From NCBI RefSeq assembly GCF_018977255.1, contig NW_024704742.1, positions 55,368,001-55,432,000 of the forward strand: a stretch of DNA of 64,000 nucleotides, written 5' to 3'. The notes under the pieces are model-generated. The model did no database searches and was not told the DNA's origin. It saw only the letters and a program-made list of their open reading frames with translations. The position numbers and the translations under genes are program-made. Source of the DNA: Callorhinchus milii (lineage: Eukaryota). The first letter of the stretch is position 1, and the number at the start of each line of letters is the position of its first letter. Shown here piece by piece: positions 9,295 to 63,772 of this stretch.

Positions 9295-9368
9295 GACCTC
9301 CAGATCGCTACCCTGCATGAGGGGCACTAGGATTACTATTATATAAATGCAAGTTGTTGTTGTTGTTG
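9295..9368 (+). mobile_element. L2-B 3' tail with a short internal insertion
   Basis: CGCTACCCTGCATGAGGGGCACTA...TATAAATGCAAGTTGTTG matches the tail at 56270-56333. Confidence 0.75.
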
Positions 9369-11593: not shown

Positions 11594-12088
11594 CAACAAC
11601 AACAACAAAATTACATTTGTATAGCGCCTTTCACGTGGGGAAGATAATAATAATACTAATAATCCTTGCATTTGATATAGCGCTTTTCACGTCGGGAGGA
11701 TGTCCCAAAGCGCTTCACAGAACACACTGTAAAGTGAATTGACTATATTTGTGGGCGAACGCGGCAGCCAATTGCGCAGAGCAATGACCCACAAACAGTC
11801 GTAGATTGAAAATAACCAATTTTTATTATTGTTTTTGGTTTTGGAGGGACTATTATTAGGCGCGTGGAGTAAGGAAACTTGCCCATGGTTTCGCCCTGCC
11901 TGGAATTGAACTCAGGTTGTCCCAAGACGCTGGACAATCAGAATCAGTGTTTCGGACCTAAGCTGGGGTTTGGGATTGGGGAGAGTGGAGGGCAGGGGGG
12001 GAAGGAGTGTGACCGAAGGTACGGTCAAAGAGTAGGGTCATGAGACGGGTCTTGAAGGATGCAAGGGAGGGGGTGAGGTGAAGGGACT
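11594..12088 (-). mobile_element. L2-A 3' end interrupted by a SINE
   Basis: Tail at 11594-11645 and body at 11918-12088 rejoin into one L2 3' stem-loop. Confidence 0.85.
11646..11917 (-). mobile_element. SINE family A, short form, 5'-truncated, with L2-type loop
   Basis: B-box through (ATT)n tail; lacks the 65-bp segment; hairpin reads GGGACATCCTCCCGACGTG. Confidence 0.9.
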
Positions 12089-13024
12089 ACACTGCAATGT
12101 CCAAAGGTGCACCCAGACTCATTCAAAAAATACTGTGCACCAGTAGAGGGGCTAGAGTTTGTATGGAAGGTAGGGGAGGGGGGCAGAGTTTACCCAAGAA
12201 CTGCCGGTGTAATTTTCCGAGATGCTTTGGCTAGAATTTACTTAGGAATCTCAGGCACTGGTGCATGAGGCGAAAATACTAGTGCCAGTTCATAATTGGT
12301 CTAGTCTTCAAAATGGGATGTGGATGGGATAAGCATGTATGTGGGGTACGAGGGGGGAAGGGTGTTTGCATGTATGTAAATAGACCCCTGGGGTGTCTCT
12401 CATAAAATCAAGACCTCTATTTTATTATGGAAGATGTGCACTTTATTACTACCCTCGTGGTATCCAATCCATCACACCATTAATGGTTACTTTTGGAGAT
12501 TTGACAATTCGTCCCAGTTTCACAATACATCCCGTATGACCTCCAAAGGGGACAAAGACATTAGATGAAAAGAAAACAGACATCAAACAGAAGCCTTGAT
12601 AGTCTTACCAGTTGTCAACCAGAGCCAATTCTCCTTTTATCAGCTTACTAGCAAGTCTGGAACTGACAAGAATAGAATAGTTGCAGATGCTTTACCAAGG
12701 ATATTTGCACACACATCCGTGATGATTATTCTGTCATCAATGAATAGGTAATAAAATGGAAGCTCTTCTGTTAAGACTGAAGTTCACATGAACGTATACA
12801 CAGGGCAAGCCTCCTAGGGGGAATATGGCACTTGCTCGGAAGCCACACACTGTGCAATATGGATTTAAATGTGCCGCAGAACACAAACTATGTCAAAACC
12901 CAGTGGTATTGAATCTAACCTATAAATAACACACAGAAGCAAAGGACTGATTATATATTCATAAGTGACCCTTTTACCTTTTTATTCACTTTTTGTTTCT
13001 TTATCAGAAATTCGTACAAACCAC

Positions 13025-15184: not shown

Positions 15185-15560
15185 AGATAATAATAATCCT
15201 TGCATTTTGGTATAGCACCTCTCATATCTGGAGGCTTTATCAAAACACATCCCAGGATATTCCGTACAGTACTGTCACAAACAGCCATCAAATGAATGAC
15301 CAGTTTTATTTTGTGGATTGTTGGACACCGGGTGAAACTCTCTTCTCTTTTTGAAGAGAGCCATGGGATCTTTAACATACACCTGATGTGGTGGACGGGA
15401 CCTCGGTTTAATGTTTCATCCGAAGGACGACATCTCCGACATGCCCAACCCTGCAATGGAGTGTCAGCCTAGACTTTATGAGTTATAAGTCCTGATGTGA
15501 AGGTTGAACCCACAACCTTCTAACTCAGTGGTGAGAGTGCTTCGAACTGAGCCAGGCGGT
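15185..15560 (-). mobile_element. Deu-domain SINE
   Basis: GCCATGGGATCTTTAAC, CCTCGGTTTAATGTTTCATCCGAAGGACGG, GTGTCAGCCTAGA and AACTGAGCCAGGC. Confidence 0.85.
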
Positions 15561-22435: not shown

Positions 22436-22779
22436 CAGAATAACCCATTGCACTTTGAGATGTTTCAATGTGATTAGGTGCTTTATCAAACACAATTATT
22501 AATATCTAACTTTGTATTTTTAGTTTGCGAATCACTTATAATTTTATAATTAATAATTATAATAAGAACTACAAGAAAAATGGTCTTAAAAAAAACACTG
22601 AAGTGGTCAACGATCATTTTTGGATGGCTACAATTCTGAAGCCTAAAGTGGGAGGTAGCATTTGTTGAAAGAGAACCCAGGCATCAAAGACATGTAACTG
22701 AGTCCCTACTGTGCAAAGTGATTAATGAAAGGAGATCAAAGTTACTTCACCTTTATATCCTCAAATCCCATCATCGCAG

Positions 22780-23481
22780 CCTGCTTTTCTGACTGGAGGG
22801 AAGTGTACAATGCCATCCCCCCAGGGATCGGTATTAGGACCACTGCTCTTCTTAATATATATAAATGATCTGGACTTGGGTATAGCAAGTACCATTTCCA
22901 AGTTTGCGGATGACACAAAGTTAGGTAGGGTAGTAAACAGTGAGAAGGATAGTAGCCAACTGCAGGAAGACATAGACAGAATGGTAAAATGGGCAGACAC
23001 ATGGCAGATGAATTTCAATGTGGAGAAATGTGAGGTAATGATTTTGGAAGAAAGAATGAGGGGAGGCAATATAGGCTGGTAATACAATCTTAAGGGGGGT
23101 GAAGGAACAGAGAGACCTGGGGGTGCAGGTAAATGAATCCTTAAAGGTTGCAGGACAGGTAGATAAAGCTGTATTATTATTATTATTAATATTATTATTA
23201 TAATAAGCGCATATGGGATACTAGGCTTTATAAATAGGGGCATAGAGTACAAGAGTCAGGAGGTTATGATTAACCTATATAAAACACTGGTTAGGCCTCA
23301 GTTAGAATATTGCACCCAATTCTGGGCACCACACTATAGGAAGGATGTTAAAGCATTGGAAAGGGTGCAGAGGAGATTTACAAGGATGGTACCAGGAATG
23401 AGTGACCTTGATTATGAGGAAAGGATAAAGAGGCTGGGATTATTCTCATTGGAGCAGGGAAGGTTACGAGGAGACCTATTA
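22780..23481 (+). mobile_element. CR1 LINE (host), RT C-terminal part, 5' piece
   Basis: PQGSVLGPLLFLIYINDL, FADD catalytic motif, LVRPQLEYC, VQRRFTRM; frameshifted. Confidence 0.95.
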
Positions 23482-25148
23482 AGAACATAACATAAGAACA
23501 TAAAAATTAGGAGGAGTAGACCATTCGGCCCCTCTAGCCTGCCCCGCCATTCAATAAGATCGTGGCTGATCTATTCTACCTCCACCTACCCGCCTTATCC
23601 CCATATCCCTTAATCCCTTTATCCACAAGAAATCTATCAATCTCCATCTTGAATATGTTCAAGGACTGAGCATCTTCAACCTTTTGGGGTAGAGAATTCC
23701 ATAAATTCACTACCTTCTGAGTGAAGAAGTTTTTCCTCAACTCAGTGCGAAAAGGTTTATCCCTAATTTTAAGACTCTGACCCCTGGTTATAGTTTCTCC
23801 AACCAGGGGAAAAAGTCTCCCACTATCTATTCTGCTGTGCCCCTTAATAATCTTATAGGTTTCCATAAGATCACCTCTCATTCTTCTATATTCTAAAGAA
23901 TATAGGCTTAAATTGCTCAACCTCTCCTCATAACTCATCCCCCTCATCTCTGGTACCAACCTATTGAATCTACGTTGTACCCCTTCCTAGACGAGTACAT
24001 CCTTTCTTAAATAAGGAGACCAAAACTGCACACAATACTCTAGGTGATGTCTCACAAGGGCCCTATACAGTTGCAACAAGACTTCCCTACTCTTATATTC
24101 TAACCCTTTTGTAACAAATGCCAACATACCGTTAGCCTTCCTAATTGCTTGCTGTACCTGCAAACTAACTTCTTGTGACTGGTGTACAAGGACACCCAAG
24201 TCCCTCTGAACTCTAACACTATCTAGTCTCTCTCCTTCTAAAAAATAATCTGCTCTACTGTTCTTGCCACCTAAGTGGATGACCTCACATCCCACGCTAG
24301 GATGCAAACCATCAGGTCCAGGGGACTTGTCACTTTTTAATGCCAACAATTTGCCTAGAACCAATTCTTTGCTAATGTAAATTTCCCTAAGTTGCTCCCT
24401 ATCATTAACCCCTTGGTTCATCTCTATTTCTGGTAAACTTCTTGTGTCTTCTAACGTGAAGACAGAAGCAAAGTATTTATTTAGGGATTCTGCCATATCC
24501 TTATCCCCCATTCTAATTCCTCCTGCCTCTGCCTGTAATGGACCCACATTTACTTTTGCTAGCCTATTCCTCTTAATGTATTTATGAAAACTCCTACAAT
24601 CTGTCTTAATGTTCCTAGCTAACTTGCCCTCATAATCCATTTTCTCACTCTTAATGAGCTTTTTGGTTTTCCTTTGTTGATCCCTAAAACACTCCCAGTC
24701 CTCAGGTTTGCTATTCTTTTTGGCAGTTTTATAGGACTTTTCTTTTAGTTTTATACTTTCTCTAACTGCTCTAGTTAGCCACGGATGAACTGCTTTCCCT
24801 GTGGTATTCTTATTCCTCAAGGGAATATGTGACCACTGAGAATTTTGCACTACATCTTTAAATGTTTGCCATTGTTGGTCTATTGTCATATCCATTAATC
24901 TAATTCCCCAGTCTATTTTAACTAATTCTTCCCTCATACTTGCAAAATTAGCTTTATTTAAATTTAAGACCCTTACTTCAGATTTGACTACATCGCTCTC
25001 TAACTTAATACTAAATTCTATCATGTTATGATCACTCTGCCCCAGAGGAGCCTCAATAGCTATATTATTGACTAGTCCTGTTTCATTACACAAAACAAGG
25101 TCTAGGATGGCCTGTCCCCTAGTTGGTTTCTCAACATACTGCTCCAGA
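23482..25148 (-). mobile_element. CR1 LINE (guest), young, RT domain deleted in frame
   Basis: ORFs 23987-25093 and 23576-23959 share a frame and are separated by one TAG; SDHN (EN end) and SPGPDGLHP join directly to CEVIHLG; (TTATGTTC)n tail. Confidence 0.95.
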
Positions 25149-25537
25149 AGAGGTTTTCAAAATCATGAGGGGATTTGATAGGTTAGAAAGAGAAAAAATG
25201 GTTCCACTGGTGGGTGTGTCGGTGACTCGAGGTCACAGATTTAAAATAGTCTCTAAAAGAGGCAGGTGGGAGGTGAGAAGAATTTTTTTCCCACAGCGAA
25301 TTGTTCGAATCTGGAACGCACTGCCTGAAAGGGTGGTGGAGGCCGATTTGATAACAACTTTTAAAAATGCAATGGATGGGTATTTGAGGAGGACGGGTTT
25401 GCAGGGTTATGGGGAAATGGCTGGGGAGTGGGATTGACATTACATTGCTCTTTTCAAAGAGCCGACACAGACTCGATGGGCCGAATGGCCTCTTTTTGTG
25501 CTGTACGATTCTATGATTCTATGATCTATGATTCTAT
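25149..25537 (+). mobile_element. CR1 LINE (host), 3' piece
   Basis: EVFKIMRGFD..RIWNALP continues the 22780-23481 frame; tail (ATTCTATG)n. Confidence 0.95.
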
Positions 25538-26205: not shown

Positions 26206-27083
26206 GTAGCATTTCACTACCAGTCACAGAAAGGCTGCTTCAGACACTGCCTCAATCATGCCATTGGTCAGATTAGCATCAAGTAGTCTTTGATGTGCTA
26301 TTTCAGAACAATGTACTGCACAGACATAAAGCTCCTCCTCCCATTTATTACAATAGGAAATGAAGGAGCCTTAATTTGGGATCATTTGTTGATAGTTGAA
26401 GTTAGCGAGTTTGGCTCAATTGCCTAACTTTCTCCTCATTGCCTAACCAACAATTTATTTCTGCATAGCTGGTTGTGGGAACTTGTTTGTGCAAATGACT
26501 GCTGCATGTGTCCACAAAAAAACACAATATCTTTTGAGATATTTATATGCTCTAAAATATTGCAAAACTGCATTTTTAAAAAAAATCCAATTATCTTACC
26601 ATGTTGCCTCAAATGAGTTTAATTGGAGTTTGGGGAGTATGATTATTATTTGGACAATAAATAGTTATGCTGCTGTGGGCTAGTATCCAAAATTATATTA
26701 TAAAGCTCACTGAAAGCTGCTTATATCTGTCTGAGAGACTTGTTTTATTGGCATCCAGTAAATGAATAAGCAGGATACAATTCATCAGTTTATAAACTTA
26801 TTGAATTAGATTGTAAAACCATTGGCAATGGTTAGTCTTCTTCTATCTATCTTCTTCTATACTAATAAAACAATAATGTCTGTCTGCGCTTCAAGAAGGA
26901 TCTCAATAACTGATTGTCGTAGAGACATGATTTACATCTCATCGGAAAGGTCTTGCATCTGGGATTGACATGGGTATGTTTGTTTTGGGGTATCTCTTAT
27001 TGTTCATGAGTTATTTGCAGTTTTGTATTTTTTGCTGCAGTTACACCTGGTGGCCGCTGAGTCAAAGTGTCACTGTGGCATTT

Positions 27084-27418
27084 GGAGTCCTGTAGCTCAG
27101 TGGTTGGAGCACTCACCTTACAAGCGAGACACCTGGGTTCAATTCCAGGCAGAGGGCGAAACCTTGGGCAAGTTTCCTTACTCCACACGCCTAATAATAA
27201 TCCCTCCAAAACCAAAAACAATAATAAATTGGTCATTTTCAATCCACGACTTTTTGTGGGACACTGCTGTGTGCAATTGGCTGCCGCATTTTGTCCACAA
27301 AATATACAGTCAATTCACTTTACAGCATATTCTGTGAAGCGTTTTGAGATGCCTAGAAGATGTGAACAGCGCTATATCAAATGCAAGGATTGTTATTGTT
27401 AGCATTATTATTATTATT
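27084..27418 (+). mobile_element. SINE family A, short form, full length
   Basis: GGAGTCCTGTAGCTCAGTGG head, GGTTCAATTCC B-box, (ATT)n tail. Confidence 0.92.
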
Positions 27419-28600: not shown

Positions 28601-29486
28601 TGAATTAACCACGTTCTCGTTGGAATGCCCCCTTTGGAATACCCCCCACCATAACACACATTTGAGTGTAGACTTGCTTAGAGATGTGGATACCAGTGAT
28701 GACTTAGATGGCTTCCTGCACTAAAAAATGTTCGACTTCCAGGTTGTCAGCTTGCCATGGACACCACTTCCTGTGCATTGTGTTTGGGTGATGTCCCAAT
28801 CAATAAGGCCCTTCCTGGATTTGGGTTTTAAAGCTATTTGTAATAGCCAGTGAACTCCATTGTGAAAACTATCTGGAGAAGTGTCTTCAGGGAGACCTTC
28901 AGGAGAAAACACTCCTGCACAGCATTAATACAGAGGGTGCAAATCACACACAACCCATTTTCCCCATGCTCCGTTCAAAGCTTTGAACAAACCATTTTTT
29001 AACAGTAAGATGAAGGTAGTCATGTGATGGTAAATTAGTAACATTCAAAACCATTCCATTTTAATGTGTTTGTGTTGCACTGAAGAATTTCAAAATCAGA
29101 TGATCTTTTTTGGGGGGCCCCATTAGATGCAGTAAGCCTACATTTTGCTACTCACTCTCCTTTGCTGTACTGTCAGCTGTGAAGAAATAGAAAAGCAGGT
29201 TAAGAAATGTTTCCAGATGATGTACAAGCGGTTTCTCATTTTTTGTGTCTGTGATTTATTTTCCCCTGAGGCAAAGGATGTTCACCTAGAAGTAAATAAG
29301 AACACGGTAGTTAGTCGATTGGTTGATTGCTTTTCCGGGGATAATAATTCCTTCAAAAAAAATATTGATAACCCCACTGCCCTAGCCCAAGTGTTGAGTT
29401 GAAGACAATCTCTACCATTAATGAGAGCCAAAATCTAGCATATTGCTTCAGTTTAAAGTGCCAGCTTGTCTGATATTCTAATTCAT

Positions 29487-29848
29487 GGAGTCCTGTAGCT
29501 CAGTGGTTAGAGCACTTGCCTTCCAAGCGAGAGGACCTGTGTTTGATTCCTGGCAGGTCAAAATGTTGGCCAAGTTTCCTTACTCCACACGCCTCTGTTC
29601 ACCTAGCAGTAAATAAGAGCCCGGTAGTTAGTCGATTGGCGGATTGCTTTTCCGGGGGTAATAATCCCTTGAAAAAAAATAATAATGATAATTTGTTCAC
29701 TTAATCCATGCTGTTTGCAATTGGCTGCTGCTTTTCGCCCACAAAATATAGTCAATTCACTTTACAGTGTATTCTGTGAAGTGCTTTGAGACGTCTTAAA
29801 GACATGATAAAATGTGATTGCTACATCAACTGCAAGGATTATTATTAT
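29487..29848 (+). mobile_element. SINE family A, long form, full length
   Basis: tRNA head, core, 65-bp segment at 29594-29658, and tail. Confidence 0.92.
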
Positions 29849-35137: not shown

Positions 35138-35463
35138 TAATAATAATAATAATAATAATCCTTGCATTTGATATAGCGCTTTTCACGTCAGGAGGACGTC
35201 CCAAAGCGCTTCACAGAACACACTGTAAAGTGAATTGACTGTATATTTGTGGGCGAACGCGGCAGCCATTTGCGCACAGCAATGTCCCACAAACAGTCAT
35301 AGATTGAAAATGACCAATTTAATTATTGTTTGGGGCTTTTTGGAGGGATTATTATTAGGCGTGTGGAGTAAGGAAACTTGCCCAAGGTTTCGCCCTGCCT
35401 GGAATTGAACTCAGGTCTCTCACTTGCAAAGCAAGTGCTCTAACCACTGAGCTACAGGACTCC
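35138..35463 (-). mobile_element. SINE family A, short form, full length, L2-type loop; young
   Basis: Many intact CpGs; hairpin AGCGCTTTGGGACGTCCTCCTGACGTGAAAAGCGCT; pure (ATT)n tail. Confidence 0.95.
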
Positions 35464-35884
35464 AGGACTACAGGACTGTAGTGCTGGTTGTGGCGAGAAA
35501 TACTTTATCTGATCTTTTGTCTTGTTTGAAGCTTGTCAATGTTACATTGATGGCCTCAGCTCTTATACAAGTTAATTAACCTGGTTACATCAACATTATC
35601 CCTGTGCCTCAGAATTTTAAACACCAGGGCAACAACATCATTACATACCAATCATTCAATAGCAACTTTTCTTTCTGCCTTTCATATTGGTTCACCTAAA
35701 AAATAAAACCCAGTAAATTTGTTCTTTTTAGTGATTGTGATATGAAAGATCCTATGTTGCCATTGAGTATTTTTTCTCCATTGAAGACATGTTCAGTTCC
35801 GTATGTCTTTCATCATGACTTAAACCCAAATTCCTAGACTTGTCCTAGTTAATCTTTGAATTCTTACCAATCCATCAATGTCCT

Positions 35885-38974: not shown

Positions 38975-39990
38975 TAATTTGGATTTATATAACACCTTTC
39001 TACAAAAGAAAACTTCTCACAATAATTACATACGCTGAGTGGAAACCTGAACACAGTGGGAAATGGGGGAGATTGGGTTACAAAAGAGCTGATTGAAGGC
39101 GTGGTCAAAGAGGTTATAAAGAAGCACAATAAAAGCAAAGAGAGAGACTGGTAGATGGAGAGATTTTCCCAGAGAGTTCCAATGGGCATAGTGGCCAAAG
39201 ACTTGGCTGCCAATGTGGGGCAGAGGAAATGCATCAAGCCCAAGCTTGCGGAATGGAGTAGGTGGGAGAGTGGGTGGGGGGGGGGGGGGGGGAGGGGGTG
39301 GAAGCAGATTGCAGACGTAGGTGCTCTGGTCTGCTCCACGTCCCCCGCCCCAACTGCCCTACCATTGGTGGTCGGGCCTTCAGCCTCTCAGCCCCCAGGC
39401 TCTGGAACTCCATCCCCCAGTGCCTTCGTCGCCTCCTCCCTTTCCTCCTTCAAGGCCGGTCTCAAAACCTTTCTCTTTGACCGAGCCTTCAGCTCCCCTC
39501 TCGACTCTCTTCCCCTCCTCGCTCCCTCCCTTCCCTCCCCTCACCCTGACCATTTCCCCCTCCTTGCTCCCTCCCTTTCCTCCCCTCACCCTGACCATTT
39601 CCCCCCTGCTCGGGTCATGACCCAACTGTGCAGCACCTTGGGACGTCCTCCTGACGTGAAAGGCGCTTTATAAATGGAATCTTGTTGTTGTTGTTGTAGG
39701 TGGGGCAAAGGCGTAGAAGGATGTGAAGGTCAGAACAAGAATCTTGATGTTGATTCAGTAGAACCAGATGAGGATGGTGGTGATGGTCTTGAGGAATCTA
39801 ATTTGGGAGAAGATATGAGCAGGGAGCTCTGGATGAGTTGGAACTTATGGAAGGTTGAGTAGGAGAGAGTCTGAGAGGTTGTTTGTGGAGATGACTAAAG
39901 AATGAATGAGAGTTTGGCTGCACTGGGATTGAGATGCAGACATAGGTGAGCGATATTCTTCAGGTAGAGAAAAGTGGTCTTGGTCAAGGA
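38975..39990 (-). mobile_element. Old L2, interrupted by a young L2-A
   Basis: Degenerate 3' end at 38975-39250; LHKFQLIQSS-like remnant on the minus strand at 39820-39855. Confidence 0.6.
39321..39697 (+). mobile_element. L2-A 3' end with a 45-bp tandem duplication in the 3' UTR
   Basis: SGLLHVPR..GGRAFSLSAPRLWNSIP; duplication at about 39515-39604; (TTG)n tail. Confidence 0.92.
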
Positions 39991-40011: not shown

Positions 40012-40305
40012 AATCATAAAATCACAGAAATTTACAAAACAGAAGGAGGCCATTTGTCCATTGAGTCTGCACCAGCTCTGGGAGCTGGGTTCATTCAATC
40101 CCAGTACCCTACCTTATCCCCATACACCTATCCAGCCTCTATTCTCCATATTTTGAAGCGCTTTGGGACGTCCTCCCGACGTGAAAAGCGCTATATCAAA
40201 TACAAGGATTATTATTATTATTATTATTACTTCCCTCTTGAAACAATGGACTCTGCCTCTACCACTTTGTTTGGTAGGGCAGTCCACATTGCAACAGTCT
40301 GCAGT
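40012..40305 (-). mobile_element. CR1 3' end carrying a plus-strand SINE tail insertion (40155-40229)
   Basis: ATCACAGAAATTTACAAAACAGAAGGAGGCCATT; insert AAGCGCTTTGGGACGTCCTCCCGACGTGAAAAGCGCT..(ATT)n. Confidence 0.8.
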
Positions 40306-41584: not shown

Positions 41585-42022
41585 GGTGCTGAAGACGAAC
41601 AAACCCATTATGCCTTTTCAATGATTGAATTCAGAGGTCAGCTGTGCATTGCAATTTTGGCTAACTCATATTATATTTTAGCGGGACTCTGCCTTAACTC
41701 TGAATTTGTTTTGCATAGTTACCTGCCTAAATCTTTAACAAACTCCGAAAAACATATTTCTTCGATTGTGTCTTTAGGTAAACATCTTTAAATCTGTTTA
41801 AAACATTTTATTTCTGTGCTCGTCCACTATATTTGTCATGTGCTTTGACCCACTCTTTTCAATAAGAGCTACTGTATAAATGTAAACTGCTGTATTCCAT
41901 GTTGAAGTATTTAAAGTACTTTCCACTGAGAAGCTTCCACACTCAAAAGTCATTTTGTAAAAAACAAGAATTGATCTTGTATTTTATGAGTGTTCATGTG
42001 CCTTAGGCTAAATGTTTTTCTT

Positions 42023-43030
42023 ACAACAACAACAAGATTACATTTGTATAGCACCTTTCACGTTGGGAGGACATCCCAAGGCGCTGGACAGTGTACAGCA
42101 TTTCAGACACGAGCTGGGATCAGGGGGGAAAAGGGAGGGGATGGGAAGGGGGTTGGCTGATGGCATGTTCGAAGAGGAGGGTCTTCAGGTGGGACTTGAA
42201 AGAGGCTAAGGAAGGGGCGAGGCGGAGTGACTGGAGGATGGAGTTTCAGAGGTTGGGGGCAGAGTGACTGAAGACTCTCCTGTCAATGGTGGGGCGGGTG
42301 GGTTGGGGGACGTGGAGCAGGCCAGAGCCGACTGAGTGGAGGGAGCAGGCGGGTTGGTAGGGGGTTAGGAGGTTGCAGAGGTAGGGTGGGGTGAGGCCAT
42401 GGAGGGCTTTGTAGGTGAGAACCAGGATCTTGAACTGGATCCTCTGAAGGATAGGGAGCCAATGGAGTCGGACGAAAATGGGGGAGATGGGGTCACAGAG
42501 TTTTGTGCGGGAGAGGACACGGGCTGCAGAGTTCTGGATTATCTGCAGCCTGTGGAGGGAGGAGTTGGGAAGGGCATAGTCGAGGCTGGAGGTGATGAAG
42601 GCATGAACAAGAGTTTCAGCGGAATGAGGGGTGAGGTAATGGCGGAGTCGGGCGATGTTACGGAGGTGAGGGAAGGCAGAGCGGGTCATGGCTTGGATGT
42701 GGGGAAGAAAAGACAGTTGAGGGTCGAACAAGACACCGGGGTTCCTGACTGGCTGGTGAGTTGTAGTGAGCAACCGTGGAGGTTGATGTTGCCAGAGGCT
42801 GAGGTGCAGAGACGCTGGTGTGAGCCAATCAGGAGGACCTCAGTCTTGTTCACATTCAACTGTAGGAAATTTGCCCTCATCCGGGACTTGATGTCCGACA
42901 GACAGTCTGTCAGGACAGCAGCGGTCCTTGAGGGTGGAGGCAGAAAGATGGAGTTGGGTGTCATCCGCATACATGTGGAAGTTGATCCCATGTCTGCGGA
43001 TGATGTTACCAAGTGGGAGCATGTAGATAT
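42023..43030 (-). mobile_element. L2-A, about 1 kb of 3' portion including RT YADD
   Basis: [50 protein letters not shown]. Confidence 0.95.
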
Positions 43031-43399
43031 TAAAGAGATTGTGATTATGGAGATTGTGGGGACTAACTTCATGACTCAGCTATTTTTCTTGTGAGAATTC
43101 TCTGTCAGTCGGTATGTTTAGTAGCTGTTGTATAAATTTGAAACATTGTTATTAGAATTTTGTTGCATTTACAGTGATCTGTGAGTTCTATGTAACGTTG
43201 CAGTCATCTTTTATTGCCTCTGATGAAAGGTTCCTAAAGGAAAAAGATAAGTAATAATAATCCTTGCATTTTATATTTAACCGTTCATGTCAGGAGGATC
43301 ACTCAAAGAACTTCACAGAATATACTGTGAAGTTCAGTGACTGTGTATTTTGGTAAGCGAACAAGATTCCTAATAAGGTTCACAAAGGATCTCTGCATA

Positions 43400-45604: not shown

Positions 45605-45960
45605 TTTAATAATAAATAATAATCTTTGCATGTTATATATATCCCTATAATGTCCAGAACATCTCAAAGCACTTCACAAAGTTTCAATAAAGTGCAGTGG
45701 CTGGGTATTTGTAGTTGAACATGGCAGTTTGCACACCATAATAATAATAATAATCCTTGCATTTGATACAGAGCCTTATCAAGTCTTCGAGACATCTCAA
45801 AGTGCTTCATTGAATATGCTGTAAATTGACTGCATATTTTGTGGGCAAATGTACCACAAACAGTCATGAAATGAATGATCAATTTTACCTGGAAGATTAT
45901 TCGCCAGAAGAAACTCCCTTCTCTTTTCAAATAGCGCCAATGGGATTTTTTACGTCCAGC
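45605..45960 (-). mobile_element. Nested Deu/SINE 3' fragments
   Basis: Two (AAT)n-ATC.TTGCAT tails; AAACTCCCTTCTCTTTTCAAATAG. Confidence 0.75.
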
Positions 45961-50438: not shown

Positions 50439-51194
50439 ATACCCACACATGGAGGATTTAGATACTTGATCATATTGAATATAGTGTAAAGCCATAGTAC
50501 ATTGGCCGAGCTGAGACAAACTCTTGATAAATCAGGGAGCAAAGAGATGCAAAAGATGTCTTCACTGGGAGTTAATTCCTTCAGGTTGTTGTTCAAGTCA
50601 CAACCAGTAATTGCGGGCTATTCTCTTAAGATGGATTCCAGCCTGGAGCCAGGAAATGGCGTTAATGCTGAGTTTGTTGATACCGTATATCATAATAACA
50701 GGTATTGATTTTCAATTATGGTTCTCTCAGACATCTTCACAACCTGCTGCAGGTCAGAGACAATATCCAGATAGTCCCAAGAGCAGCCTATCAATCAGCA
50801 TTATCGTAACATATTAAAAAATTCCCATCAGTTGTGAAGTTTCACTGAATGTGATGCATCCCACGCAACACTTCCAAAAACACAGGTGAGCCTCTAAGTG
50901 ACCCATCTATACTGCACCAAGGACGGACACTCTCTTGGCACACAACCTTGGCCTCCTCCTTAAGCGCTCTGAGATGCTACCCTGCATTAAGGGCGCCACT
51001 ATATAAATCTAAGTTATTGTTGTTGCCCATTCTTATCACTGAACCTCAATACCTCTCAGAAGATGTTTCCAAAAACTAGCCCATCAGGAACCATATTGTA
51101 GGCAGATCACACTTTTTCTGAGGGCTGTCCCTCCTCTAAAGCCCCACCTTCCTCCACCTACATCTAGATTGAGCAGAAAGTGTACATTGCTGTC

Positions 51195-51440
51195 AATAAA
51201 GATCCCATGGCACTATTCAAAAACAGAAAGTGGTTTCACCCAGTGTCCTGCTCAACAATCAGAAAAAATGGTCATTCACTTCATGTCTGTTTGTGGGACA
51301 TTGCTGTGCACAAATTGGCAGCTGCATTTACCTACAAAAATACATAATCACTACACTTTACAGTGAAACCTGTGAAATGCTTTGAAACATGCTCCTAATG
51401 TGAAAGGTGCTAAATTATATCCAAGGACTATTAATTATTA
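51195..51440 (+). mobile_element. Deu-domain SINE, 3' half
   Basis: TAAAGATCCCATGGCACTATT..TGGGACATTGCTGTGCACAAATTGGC. Confidence 0.85.
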
Positions 51441-54945: not shown

Positions 54946-55272
54946 TTATAATAATAGTAAAATAATAATAATCCTTGCATTTGATATAGCACTTTTCACG
55001 TCTTTTAGAATATTCTGCATATATAGAATATATTCACAGAATATACTGCAAAATGAATTGACTGTATATTTGTGGGCAAAACGCGGCAGCCAATTAGGCA
55101 CAGCAGTGTCCCACAAACAGTTGTGAATTGAAGTGACCAATTTTATTATTATTGTTTCTTTTTGAGGGATTATTATCAGGTGTGTGGAGTAAAGAAACTT
55201 GCCCAAGGTTTCGCTCTGCCGAGAATCAAACCCAGGTCTCTTGCTTGCGGGGCGAGTGTTCTAACCACTGAG
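54946..55272 (-). mobile_element. SINE family A, short form
   Basis: Similar to 14004-14318. Confidence 0.9.
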
Positions 55273-58460: not shown

Positions 58461-60324
58461 CCTGATAACTTGGAAGTCAGAAATTTTTTAATGCGGGAAT
58501 CTTGATGGTCTGAACCAGAAATGAGAAGTGCACCACCCTTCCTGTAACCATGTAACAGGGCACACATGTTAACAGTGGACCTGCCTCTAAAGAAGCGCTT
58601 AATAATGGGATTTCCTGCTCTTTCAGGTCACTCTCTCGTGATAAAGCACGAGATCCGTGTGAGGATTGAGAATGTTTTTAATTGGATGGATTTTGTATAA
58701 CTTTGCCAGGTAGTGGATAATAAAATATACATTCTTAAAAGTATTAAAAACAAAGATGATGGAAATTCGATTCTGAAAGGAGGAGAAAAGTCTGGCTGAT
58801 GTGTTTTGTAGCCCAGGGGCACTAAGGCTAATTGTAGAAGCCTAACTGGTTGAGATCAGCTAACCCAGAAGAAAACAGTCTGGTATTCTAAACTGAAATT
58901 TTCCAATCTATACGAGAGATCTGAAGTCAGTGAGCTCCTGCCACCAACTCTTATCAAAAGCTCTGACCCCACAAGATGAACACCCCTTGGAACACACTTT
59001 GTAAAGTGAAAGCTGTTGATTACTTACTGCCTGTTAAATGCTCCATTTTGATCACAAAGTTCCGCGATGTAATAAGAAAACTTACTGTGTAGCTAATATT
59101 GAACTGAAAGCTTTTTTTAAAAGAAATCTACTTAAAGGATGAAACGATGTTTCAGAATGCCCCTCTAGAAATGTTATCAACACAATGCATCATGTTGTAG
59201 AAAAATCAACACATTAGTTTATGTTGTACCCGATTTGTGGACACCTCTGACTTGACCTCTATATTGTTTTATAGGATATTCTGCCATGTCGCAAAGCAGC
59301 AAAAGTGTTTGATGTCAAGTGTATTGATCTGTATTGCAGTGCTATTGACTTTAGCGTAAACCTATTACTAGTCGTACCACATAGCACATTTATCAAAGAG
59401 AATACATTTGGAAGAATAGTTGTGTTCCACTTATTTTCTATAAAAACCTGTATTGAGAAAGTAGTTTTAACAAATACATGCAGTTTCTTCCATTTTTATG
59501 TATTCTGGCAATTTGATGGCCATCAAATATGTCCTTTAAAGTGGTAGTTACTTCAGACTCGATAGAGCGGGGGACACAACAGAATATAATCACACAACTT
59601 ACAGCAGGTTCAGGAGTGAACTGTTAACACCTGACAAGAATTTTAAAATCCAAACAGTGCCAAGCTTCTAATTGAAAAAAAGAGTAGTGTGGAGCGAAAA
59701 AGAAAGTTTAAAAGAGGGTGTGAAACAAACGAAAGTTTTACAATAGCAAAGATGCAATTTCTATTTATATGTACGTATATATTGAATTACATAGAGCGAT
59801 GTGAAAGAGATAGGCCTTTCGGACTGTGAATTTGGTAGGCAAACACAGCAGCTCATTTAGCGTGAAAAAGCAAACTGGACTTCGGTTTAATGTCTCATCC
59901 ACAAGACAATGTGTTACTTTCTCAGTGCAGTTTGGAGTGTCAGCAAGATTATGAATGAATCAATAATGCTGATTCTTGGTCAACTATTTAGAAAATATTA
60001 ATATTCTAGTCCATTTAAATGTACCACAAAGATGTCAGAACCTTAAAACTGGGGTCCTGATCCCTGACCGTTCAGCGCCTTGAAAGGCACTTTACAAATG
60101 TAATTTTGTTGTTGTTATTGTTGTTAAACAATTCCAGAGTTTGCAAACAGAATATATACATCAAACTAAAGAACTCAAAAAAAAGATATGTCATCATGTT
60201 CAAGCTACCTTGGGCCATTACATTACATAATCCAGTAACTGAGTCAAAATACCCAAACCAGTTTGTCAGTTGATGGAAATTTTTTTTTGCTGCAGATCAA
60301 CTTCATGTTAATATGGTGAGAAGA

Positions 60325-61175: not shown

Positions 61176-61194
61176 GGTGACCAAACCAACCAAA

Positions 61195-61750
61195 AAGCCT
61201 TGTGCATGCATTTGTCACCTCCCACCTAGATTACTCAAAAACACTCCTTGCTGGTCTCCCCAGCTCAATTATTCAAAAGATCCAGCTCACTCAGAACTCT
61301 GTCACCCGTATATTTACCAGGACCAAACTCTGTACCCACATCTCACCAGTTCTGGCCAGGCTCCACTGGCTCCCCATCACCGAATGGATTGACTTCAAGA
61401 TCCTCACACTTGCGTTCAAATCCATTCACACCCTGGCACCTCCCTACCTCTCCAACCTCCTCACTCCCCAATCCACCACCCAGCGCCTCCACTCGACCTG
61501 CACCAGCCTCCTGCTCATCCCTCGCCCTCTCCGCCCCACCGTCGGAGTTCGTTCTTTCAGCCACTATGCCACAAAACTCTGGAACACTCTTCCTTGCCTT
61601 GCCCCCCCTCTCCCCTTTTTCAAGTCCCGCCTGAAAACCTTTGTGCTTATGGCCACCTCCCATCCATCCCCCGCCCGGCTCAGAGTCAGGTTCTGCCACT
61701 GTTAAGTGCTCTTGAGTTGCTACCCTGCATGGAAGTCATTGTTGTTGTAT
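61195..61750 (+). mobile_element. L2-B 3' portion
   Basis: 167-aa ORF HAFVTSHLDY..LHWLPI..LWNTLP; GCTACCCTGCATG tail. Confidence 0.92.
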
Positions 61751-62367
61751 AATAAATGCAAGAATTATTATTATTTATAATAATAACTTACATTGGCATT
61801 TGCAGGCATTTTGCTTTTCATATCATACAACTGGTTCCTTACTTATTTTAGAAGCATAAGCTTCATGTTGCTGCAGATTAACTCCAATGGGATCTCATTT
61901 CTCACACGCAATAACTTGGATCTCATTGCAATTCCTCTAAAAGCCTTGCAAATTTAGGCTTTACACACATTTTTGGTGACCAGAGGTATCTTCCACCCAA
62001 TGTGTTTTCAATTGTAAAATTACTTTACGTACAAAGGCACCATCATGTGACTTTCAGCACGGACTTCATATATAAAGCTGTAACCCTAACTGCAGCTGGA
62101 CCAAAGCCAGCATAGACTCTTTGAACCCTGATGGAATCCTGTTTTTATCTGTTACCAGATCAATGAGTCAAAGCCCTAGGCCTCTCTATTTAACACCATT
62201 GTGGGAGCACCATATCCTCGAGGACTGAATTTTAATTCTTGTTGGAAATCGGCACAATTATATATGTGAGGATTATGATATTTAATGTTGATTTTATGGC
62301 AGTAAAAGGAGAAGGCCTACATGGGAACTAGGGATGGACAATAAATGCAGGTCAATGTAACTCTGTC

Positions 62368-63447: not shown

Positions 63448-63772
63448 GTAATAATCCTCGCATTTGATATAGCACCTTATCACTTCTCAAAGTGCTTCAC
63501 AGAATATACTGTAAAGTGAATTGATTGTATATTTTGTGAGCAAAATGTGGCAGCCAACTGTGCACAGCAGTGTCCCACACACTGTTGTGGATTATGTGAC
63601 CAAATTCTTCTTTTTTTTGAAGGGATTATTATCCCGGGAAAAAGCGATCTGCCAATCGACTACCAACTGGGTAAACAGAGGCATATGGAGTAAGGAAACT
63701 TGCCCAATGTTTTGCCCCCCCCCCCCCCGGAAATTGAACCAAGCTCCTCTCGCTTGCAAAGCGAATGCTCTA
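63448..63772 (-). mobile_element. SINE family A, long form, partly deleted
   Basis: AAAAGCGATCTGCCAATCGACTA segment present; poly-C expansion near the head. Confidence 0.88.

Follow-up and report, generated by a model that had tools for sequence, protein, structure and literature searches.

The window analysed here, a 64,000-nucleotide stretch of Callorhinchus milii DNA, is repeat-rich (40% GC), and blast with the element at 35138 finds about 34 related SINE copies or fragments in it, to which copy 15207 was added later. The reference copy, its parts and two further copies with the same type of 3' hairpin are laid out as follows.

35138..35460, minus strand: young CTCC-subfamily SINE, full-length, short form, the reference copy
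35391..35460, minus: tRNA-Ala-like head, Pol III promoter region (ARAGORN tRNA-Ala(TGC); Rfam RF00005, 45.9 bits)
35225..35320, minus: central conserved segment, where most old copies align
35175..35210, minus: 3' stem-loop with an outer stem of 8 bp, a 3x2 hinge, an inner stem of 5 bp and a loop of 5 nt (RNAfold, -17.8 kcal/mol)
35203-35210/35175-35182, minus: outer stem; hinge GGG at 35200-35202
35195-35199/35185-35189, minus: inner stem; loop CTCCT at 35190-35194
35160-35174, minus: terminus, followed by (ATT)n at 35138-35159; a SINE-type, not an L2-A-type, end
35190..35201, minus: shortest tract matching L2-A, from hinge G through the five loop bases, by the informative-site table; longest tract 35181-35204
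11644..11917, minus: second young copy, 5'-truncated, within the hairpin of an L2-A tail
40154..40229, plus: third young copy, a 3' stub only, with SINE outer stem and terminus and GGG/CTCCC

Copies 11644 and 40154 both combine the GGG hinge with a CTCCC loop, and the inner stem of 11644 carries one CpG-type change. The diagnostics AACACACTGT, GGCGAACGCGG and TGAACTCAGG, which the first-pass annotation had assigned to 35138 and 11644, occur exactly twice each in the window, in these two copies. Head, conserved middle and L2-type tail fit the published description of SacSINE1 (PMC5499810), to which the SINE likely belongs; its central segment (35225..35320) may be Deu-like, as its place as the conserved middle suggests. 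Nine bases of the start of the head are repeated in the 5' flank of 35138 (35456-35481) together with a small inverted repeat, possibly a by-product of the 5' junction of this copy.

The same DNA holds the 3' ends of two L2 families.

39300..39696, plus: L2-A 3' end, inner hairpin 39643-39657, (TTG)n tail
42022..43037, minus: L2-A with a C-terminal ORF2 remnant (tblastn), one member of the closest L2-A pair, the other copy of which ends near 1813 (88.5% over 252 bp)
11594..12090, minus: L2-A 3' end that hosts SINE 11644 and is split by it (halves 11594-11643 and 11918-12090)
50950..51020, plus: L2-B tail, GAG hinge, TACCCT loop
Near 9342, 21917, 46642, 56310, 56632, 60446, 61754 and 6286: ends of other L2-B tails

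ORF2 ends directly upstream of the L2-A tails (tblastn), and L2-A has a two-part 3' stem-loop followed by a short tandem repeat. Pfam gave no RT family for any of seven ORF fragments; homologues of the ORF2 remnants carry PF00078 with PF03372/PF14529, and a LINE remnant is 63-66% identical to Callorhinchus milii RT-domain proteins over 84-86% of the query, compared with about 50-55% for teleost proteins. The pyrimidine-rich 3' UTR of the L2-A at 39300..39696 contains a tandem duplication of about 42 bp (39524-39607). Another type of LINE, with long open frames at 22761-25156 (minus strand) and weak similarity to an L2-type protein, is one that we take to be CR1-like by its motifs.

The inner hairpin of the L2-A at 39643-39657 is that of SINE 35138, and the motif shared by SINE and L2-A tails was confirmed there and at 35138, 11644 and 40154. 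Tail segment 35162-35216 matches L2-A tails (best 87% over 55 bp), and the CTCC loop is exact in 10 of 12 L2-A tails, though the L2-A copies are only 68-88% alike. The L2-B hairpin is homologous to that of L2-A, with a TACCCT-like loop across nine tails. It had been described as a different hairpin, CCCT-GCATG-AGGG, and its loop does differ; that sequence, however, is found once (9311), and CCCT most likely lies in the loop, so that the hairpin was probably first read out of register, although two of four folded copies (9342 and 56310) prefer the register first proposed. An L2-B copy at 61181-61775 (plus strand) has a fairly long open ORF2 end and a tail of ATT type rather than TTG type; we considered its terminus, 61754, as a third L2 family carrying the SINE's tail and rejected this, the loop being of L2-B type.

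The hairpin fold is common to SINE and L2-A tails, with 84.8% of cells pairing versus 36-62% when the partners are slid. One outer-stem pair, 35205/35180, changes between groups of tails (C-G in 10, U-G in 14 and U-A in 10 of the 35 tails aligned), and stem covariation in this 35-tail alignment is not clearly above a shuffle control (27 of 500). A short DNA palindrome spans the hinge, the 5' inner arm and the first loop base (35193-35202 and equivalents), whether the form is the young one (G...C) or the T-loop one (A...T); the hinge base and the first loop base change together. The hairpin carries deletions in SINEs 585 and 63443 and in L2-A 60093 (625-645, 63470-63490 and 60075-60095) and is rearranged in SINE 54952 (54995-55030); such hairpins may be mutation hot spots. 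Damage of this kind (deletions, rearrangement, an insertion at 11621) is common in the window and would offer a non-adaptive route to loop change.

Our tail alignment comprises 23 of 35 SINE copies and 12 of 15 L2-A ends. SINE copies with deleted, rearranged or truncated hairpins were excluded, as were 15207, five readable tails (45207, 49734, 62368, 60693 and 4999, all with hinge A) and the L2-A ends 20079, 11621 and 60093. At the sites that separate TAGAA-loop SINEs from L2-A, the phased young copies (three, one of them the stub 40154) all have the SINE state at 35212, 35211 and 35205, then the L2-A state at hinge site 35201 and throughout the five-base loop (35190-35194); the SINE state returns at 35180 and in the terminus (one CpG column ignored). 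Because the nearest informative sites on either side are in the SINE state, the L2-A-like patch is at least 12 bp and at most 24 bp long, which bears out the earlier proposals that only the hairpin had been swapped and that these copies keep the SINE terminus and (ATT)n. In the middle of the hinge, 3/3 young SINE tails and 10/12 L2-A tails have G, whereas all 20 other SINE tails have A. All six differences between the young hairpin and its TAGAA-loop relatives match L2-A; under a simple independent-site model that allows for 25 windows, the chance of six such changes within 12 bp is about 1e-8 at a background divergence of 2.5% and 3e-5 at 10%. The young hinge and loop thus likely came by templated replacement and not by point mutation. 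In the comparison of tails L2-A is the best candidate donor, because the G hinge is found in no other SINE tail examined; the preference for L2-A over an old CTCC SINE comes down to hinge G alone, one transition. In organism A of the public contigs described below, T at 35190 reaches 41%, while the two neighbouring CpG sites are 8% changed, so that CTCCT is probably a real variant beside CTCCC and not mere CpG decay of it, though L2-A contigs add to the signal at 35190.

The CTCC loop is also found in the oldest SINE layer; copies of that layer and of the TAGAA group are as follows.

27083..27410, plus: short-form GAG/TAGAA SINE, standing for the inferred parent group
14002, 20916, 22365, 33953 and 54952: further TAGAA-group copies, the last with a rearranged hairpin
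51265..51440, plus: old SINE, CTCCT loop, hinge A, 25.6% from the short-form majority
43247-43362 (CTCCT) and 15187-15260 (copy 15207, CTCCA): further old CTCC-loop copies, hinge A

Two more old copies, 37854 and 3313, have an ambiguous, perhaps CTCC, loop and hinge A. The majority of SINE tails have loops TCAAT, TCGAA or TAGAA. Among the 23 aligned SINE tails, the loop equals that of L2-A in the three young and two clear old ones, and does not, or does so ambiguously, in 18. The first-pass annotation had held that the CTCC loop sets 35138, 11644 and 40154 apart, and this is true of the loop in combination with the GGG hinge but not of the loop itself, which recurs in 43247, 51265 and 15207. 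The monophyly of all CTCC-loop SINEs, a test set beforehand, is rejected on a body-only tree (AU p = 0.0015 and 0.0004; the constraints joined the young pair to 51265 or to three old copies, and the groups were named after the first tree had been seen). As the old CTCC copies do not group with the young pair, the loop was either lost and then regained or gained twice. Judging from the tails compared, the young subfamily appears to have re-acquired a CTCC loop that the oldest SINE layer already had, and the loop would have been regained rather than, as earlier proposed, adopted.

Copies 35138 and 11644 belong to a subfamily that is both young and derived. No other two long repeats in the window are as close to each other (93.2% over 278 bp); the two copies differ at 14 of 246 body sites (5.7%), whereas TAGAA copies are 12-19% apart. 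The young-pair states at 35411, 35301, 35221 and 35219, which serve as markers together with a one-base deletion near 35257, are missing from most short-form and long-form copies. Young and TAGAA copies have in common a body deletion of about 62 bp (six full-length or near full-length copies lack the segment, which is present in 585, 29483 and 63443 and in variant form in 41208) and an A at 35180 (young 3/3, TAGAA 5/5), where G is found in 8/9 middle SINEs, 5/6 old SINEs and 12/12 L2-A tails. The nesting of the young copies in the TAGAA group rests on these shared characters, because the body-only tree (24 SINE copies, 43247 and 15207 being too short for inclusion) is weak and does not settle the branching within the short-form group (support of 77/85 for the young pair and 45/0 for the TAGAA group; no starred branch). 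TAGAA is one change away from TCGAA, a loop of middle-aged copies, which suggests, on the tails compared, that the ancestor of short-form SINEs carried a T-type loop.

Copy 11644 interrupts the inner stem of an L2-A tail that runs in its own direction, and at most 1-2 bases are shared at the junction; this nesting makes the host L2-A older than the SINE copy, and it could be a single case of hairpin-directed insertion. A TCGAA-loop SINE at 45738-45849 is apparently nested in an older SINE (45607-45885, minus strand) and provides an extra relative-age marker, and an 86-bp long-form body segment is duplicated upstream of copy 29483 (29279-29364 and 29596-29681, 91% identity).

Contigs of four public runs were aligned to the SINE, with X1 representing organism A, which may be the one that the window itself comes from, and X11 organism B of one study; run X21 was excluded for sparse cover and a strong C-to-T excess. 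Read as summed, unphased depths and not as copy numbers, and with a clipping bias towards reference copy 35138, the young markers reach 29% (35219), 46% (35221) and 44% (35301) in organism A and, by cover ratio, 29% (the one-base deletion) and 42% (35411); the corresponding figures in organism B are 6%, 16%, 11%, 1% and 2%. Loop cover relative to body cover is 60% in A versus 22% in B, with some contig differences uncounted and L2-A contigs also aligning on the hairpin, and the loose-end consensus of B reads GAG/TAGAA. The young subfamily is large in organism A and small or absent in B. The depth of GGG-type SINEs in B could nonetheless reach about 12%, so the swap may predate the A/B split. 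An exact-pattern scan gave no match in viral contigs and three in metagenomes, of which the one examined (L001) is unrelated coding-like DNA; related-locus scans found no L2 relatives.

The reading that we prefer, at a probability of roughly 60%, is a templated loop swap in a SINE source gene whose partner L2 tolerates different loops. The SINE would have taken its 3' tail from an L2 long ago, starting with a CTCC loop, and later source genes would have changed the loop (TCAAT, TCGAA, TAGAA), kept the stem and continued to amplify. Given the range of loops that it would have had to tolerate, the mobilising L2 protein most likely reads mainly the stem and hinge. In a short-form TAGAA source gene, 12-24 bp would then have been overwritten from an L2-A tail with SINE bases kept on both sides, and the overwritten gene would have founded the youngest large subfamily. 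The putative route is a double template switch at the hairpin, with entry via nine identical bases of the stem's 3' arm, or alternatively short templated repair of a break at the hairpin; ordinary gene conversion would have had little identity to work with between a TAGAA tail and L2-A, and the hinge site is separated from the next informative one by just 3 identical bases.

The same templated swap could also have been adaptive, which is a difference in cause, and the two readings are not exclusive. If L2-A recognised its loop strictly and earlier SINE loops had been served by L2 families that have since faded, the swap would have been selected for linking the SINE to the family that stayed active, in line with mobilisation and binding assays in which the loop of zebrafish L2 sets specificity (PMC4176376), with a loop conserved across diverged L2-A copies and with the swapped subfamily being the youngest and, in organism A, a large one. 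We consider this possible but clearly the less probable cause. The loops TCAAT, TCGAA and TAGAA are found in 0/14 readable L2-A and 0/9 L2-B tails in the window, and the spread of SINE subfamilies with such loops and no matching L2 tail (0/23) points to loop tolerance of the L2 protein. Moreover, the proposal that the SINE swapped its hairpin to track the active LINE sits poorly with the ages: the closest L2-A pair is 11.5% apart, like TAGAA SINEs and unlike the younger CTCC pair, single copies of other L2-A lineages not being datable by pairwise distance. Several body changes, including some in the head, could also explain the success of the subfamily.

A low-copy SINE lineage might instead have kept CTCC throughout, with the TAGAA loop derived from TCGAA copies and hinge G arising by point change. 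The three old CTCC copies (43247, 51265 and 15207) and the unresolved short-form group agree with such a history, and a G hinge, which keeps the palindrome over hinge, stem and first loop base, could have been favoured. The lineage would have to be a hidden one, as none of the 35 copies in the window is of intermediate age, and hinge A is found in 5/5 CTCC-like old copies; a tract transfer into the TAGAA group and a change that coincidentally matches L2-A would still be needed, which makes retention unlikely.

Replacement of the whole tail by that of an unsampled L2 with the SINE outer stem, a CTCC loop, the SINE terminus and (ATT)n would take one crossover, simpler than two, and the hinge, outer arm and terminus of the SINE are indeed closer to L2-B than to L2-A, with L2-B 61754 ending in an ATT-type tail. 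We regard this as improbable: no such L2 is among the termini listed in the window, the donor states stop before 35180 and the terminus where exchange of a whole module would have carried them on, and outside the patch no non-CpG informative site sets the young tail apart from the TAGAA tail. Point mutations clustered in a fast-changing loop, or GC-biased conversion there, with a chance match to L2-A, are least probable, for although SINE loops vary widely between subfamilies and four of the six changes run from A/T to G/C, GC bias does not account for the other two (A to T and G to C), none of 8 short-form tails has a loop part-way from TAGAA to CTCCY, and the probabilities given above are very small.

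SacSINE1/SacSINE1-CM and the CmiSINEs, with partner L2-2_CM, combine a tRNA head, a central domain and an L2 tail in cartilaginous fishes, and SINE families are thought by the authors to have exchanged some 160 bp at the 3' end (Luchetti et al. 2017, PMC5499810). The SINE described here shares with SacSINE1 the tRNA-related head, the L2-related tail and probably the central conserved domain; the published exchange involved a whole 3' end and a SINE donor, whereas here an internal 12-24 bp changed, the donor is likely a LINE and both the terminus and the tail repeat stayed SINE-type. Loop variants among SacSINE1/CmiSINE subfamilies are not discussed in the portion of PMC5499810 considered here. 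In eel and zebrafish, recognition by L2 proteins is general for the stem and specific for the loop, and the 3' repeat is where reverse transcription begins (PMC4176376, PMC1636434); UnaL2 is strict for its own loop, GGAUA, and the ZfL2s are likewise loop-strict (Nomura et al. 2006, PMC1636434; Hayashi et al. 2014, PMC4176376). As those accounts describe them, UnaL2/UnaSINE1-2 and ZfL2-1/ZfL2-2 resemble the present tails in their two-part stem with hinge, short loop and short 3' repeat. In contrast to their strictness, abundant SINE subfamilies here have loops that are unlike those of both sampled L2 families in most or all bases, suggesting either looser reading or unsampled partners.

Template switching has been put forward as a way for a SINE to come under the dominant LINE (Nishihara et al. 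2016, PMC4824008; Tong et al. 2009, PMC2653535). The tail replacements described in those reports concern whole tails exchanged between LINE types, while here, within one family, just the hinge and loop of the partner appear to be regained. Short-tract gene conversion between Alu subfamilies likewise leaves internal patches with the diagnostic bases of another repeat; here the likely donor is a LINE, and the patch, presumably the site that the protein recognises, would have become fixed in a source gene. A loop-only swap from LINE to SINE was not found in the literature searched (titles and the starts of abstracts, with few subscription journals). Tails common to SINEs and L2s, recognition of the loop and exchange of whole tails are thus known; the loop-only LINE-to-SINE patch, which works like the known tail exchange, appears to be new.

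What is known of the loop stringency of L2 elements comes from cell assays on a small number of elements from eel and zebrafish. A natural, age-ordered series of SINE loops on one conserved stem, with one return, makes both this stringency and its bearing on SINE success testable, and points to tail exchange at a much finer scale than published whole-tail swaps. Should loop identity prove irrelevant, the patch would be a neutral micro-conversion in a source gene and mainly a subfamily marker. We also offer, as a tentative and rather doubtful idea, that SINEs re-synchronise with their helper LINE by copying loop and hinge only, and that the advantage so gained made one source gene the founder of the young subfamily that dominates in one lineage. 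If this is true, the TCAAT, TCGAA and TAGAA waves would be escapes of a parasite's loop from the LINE protein and the return to CTCC its recapture, a series provided by nature.
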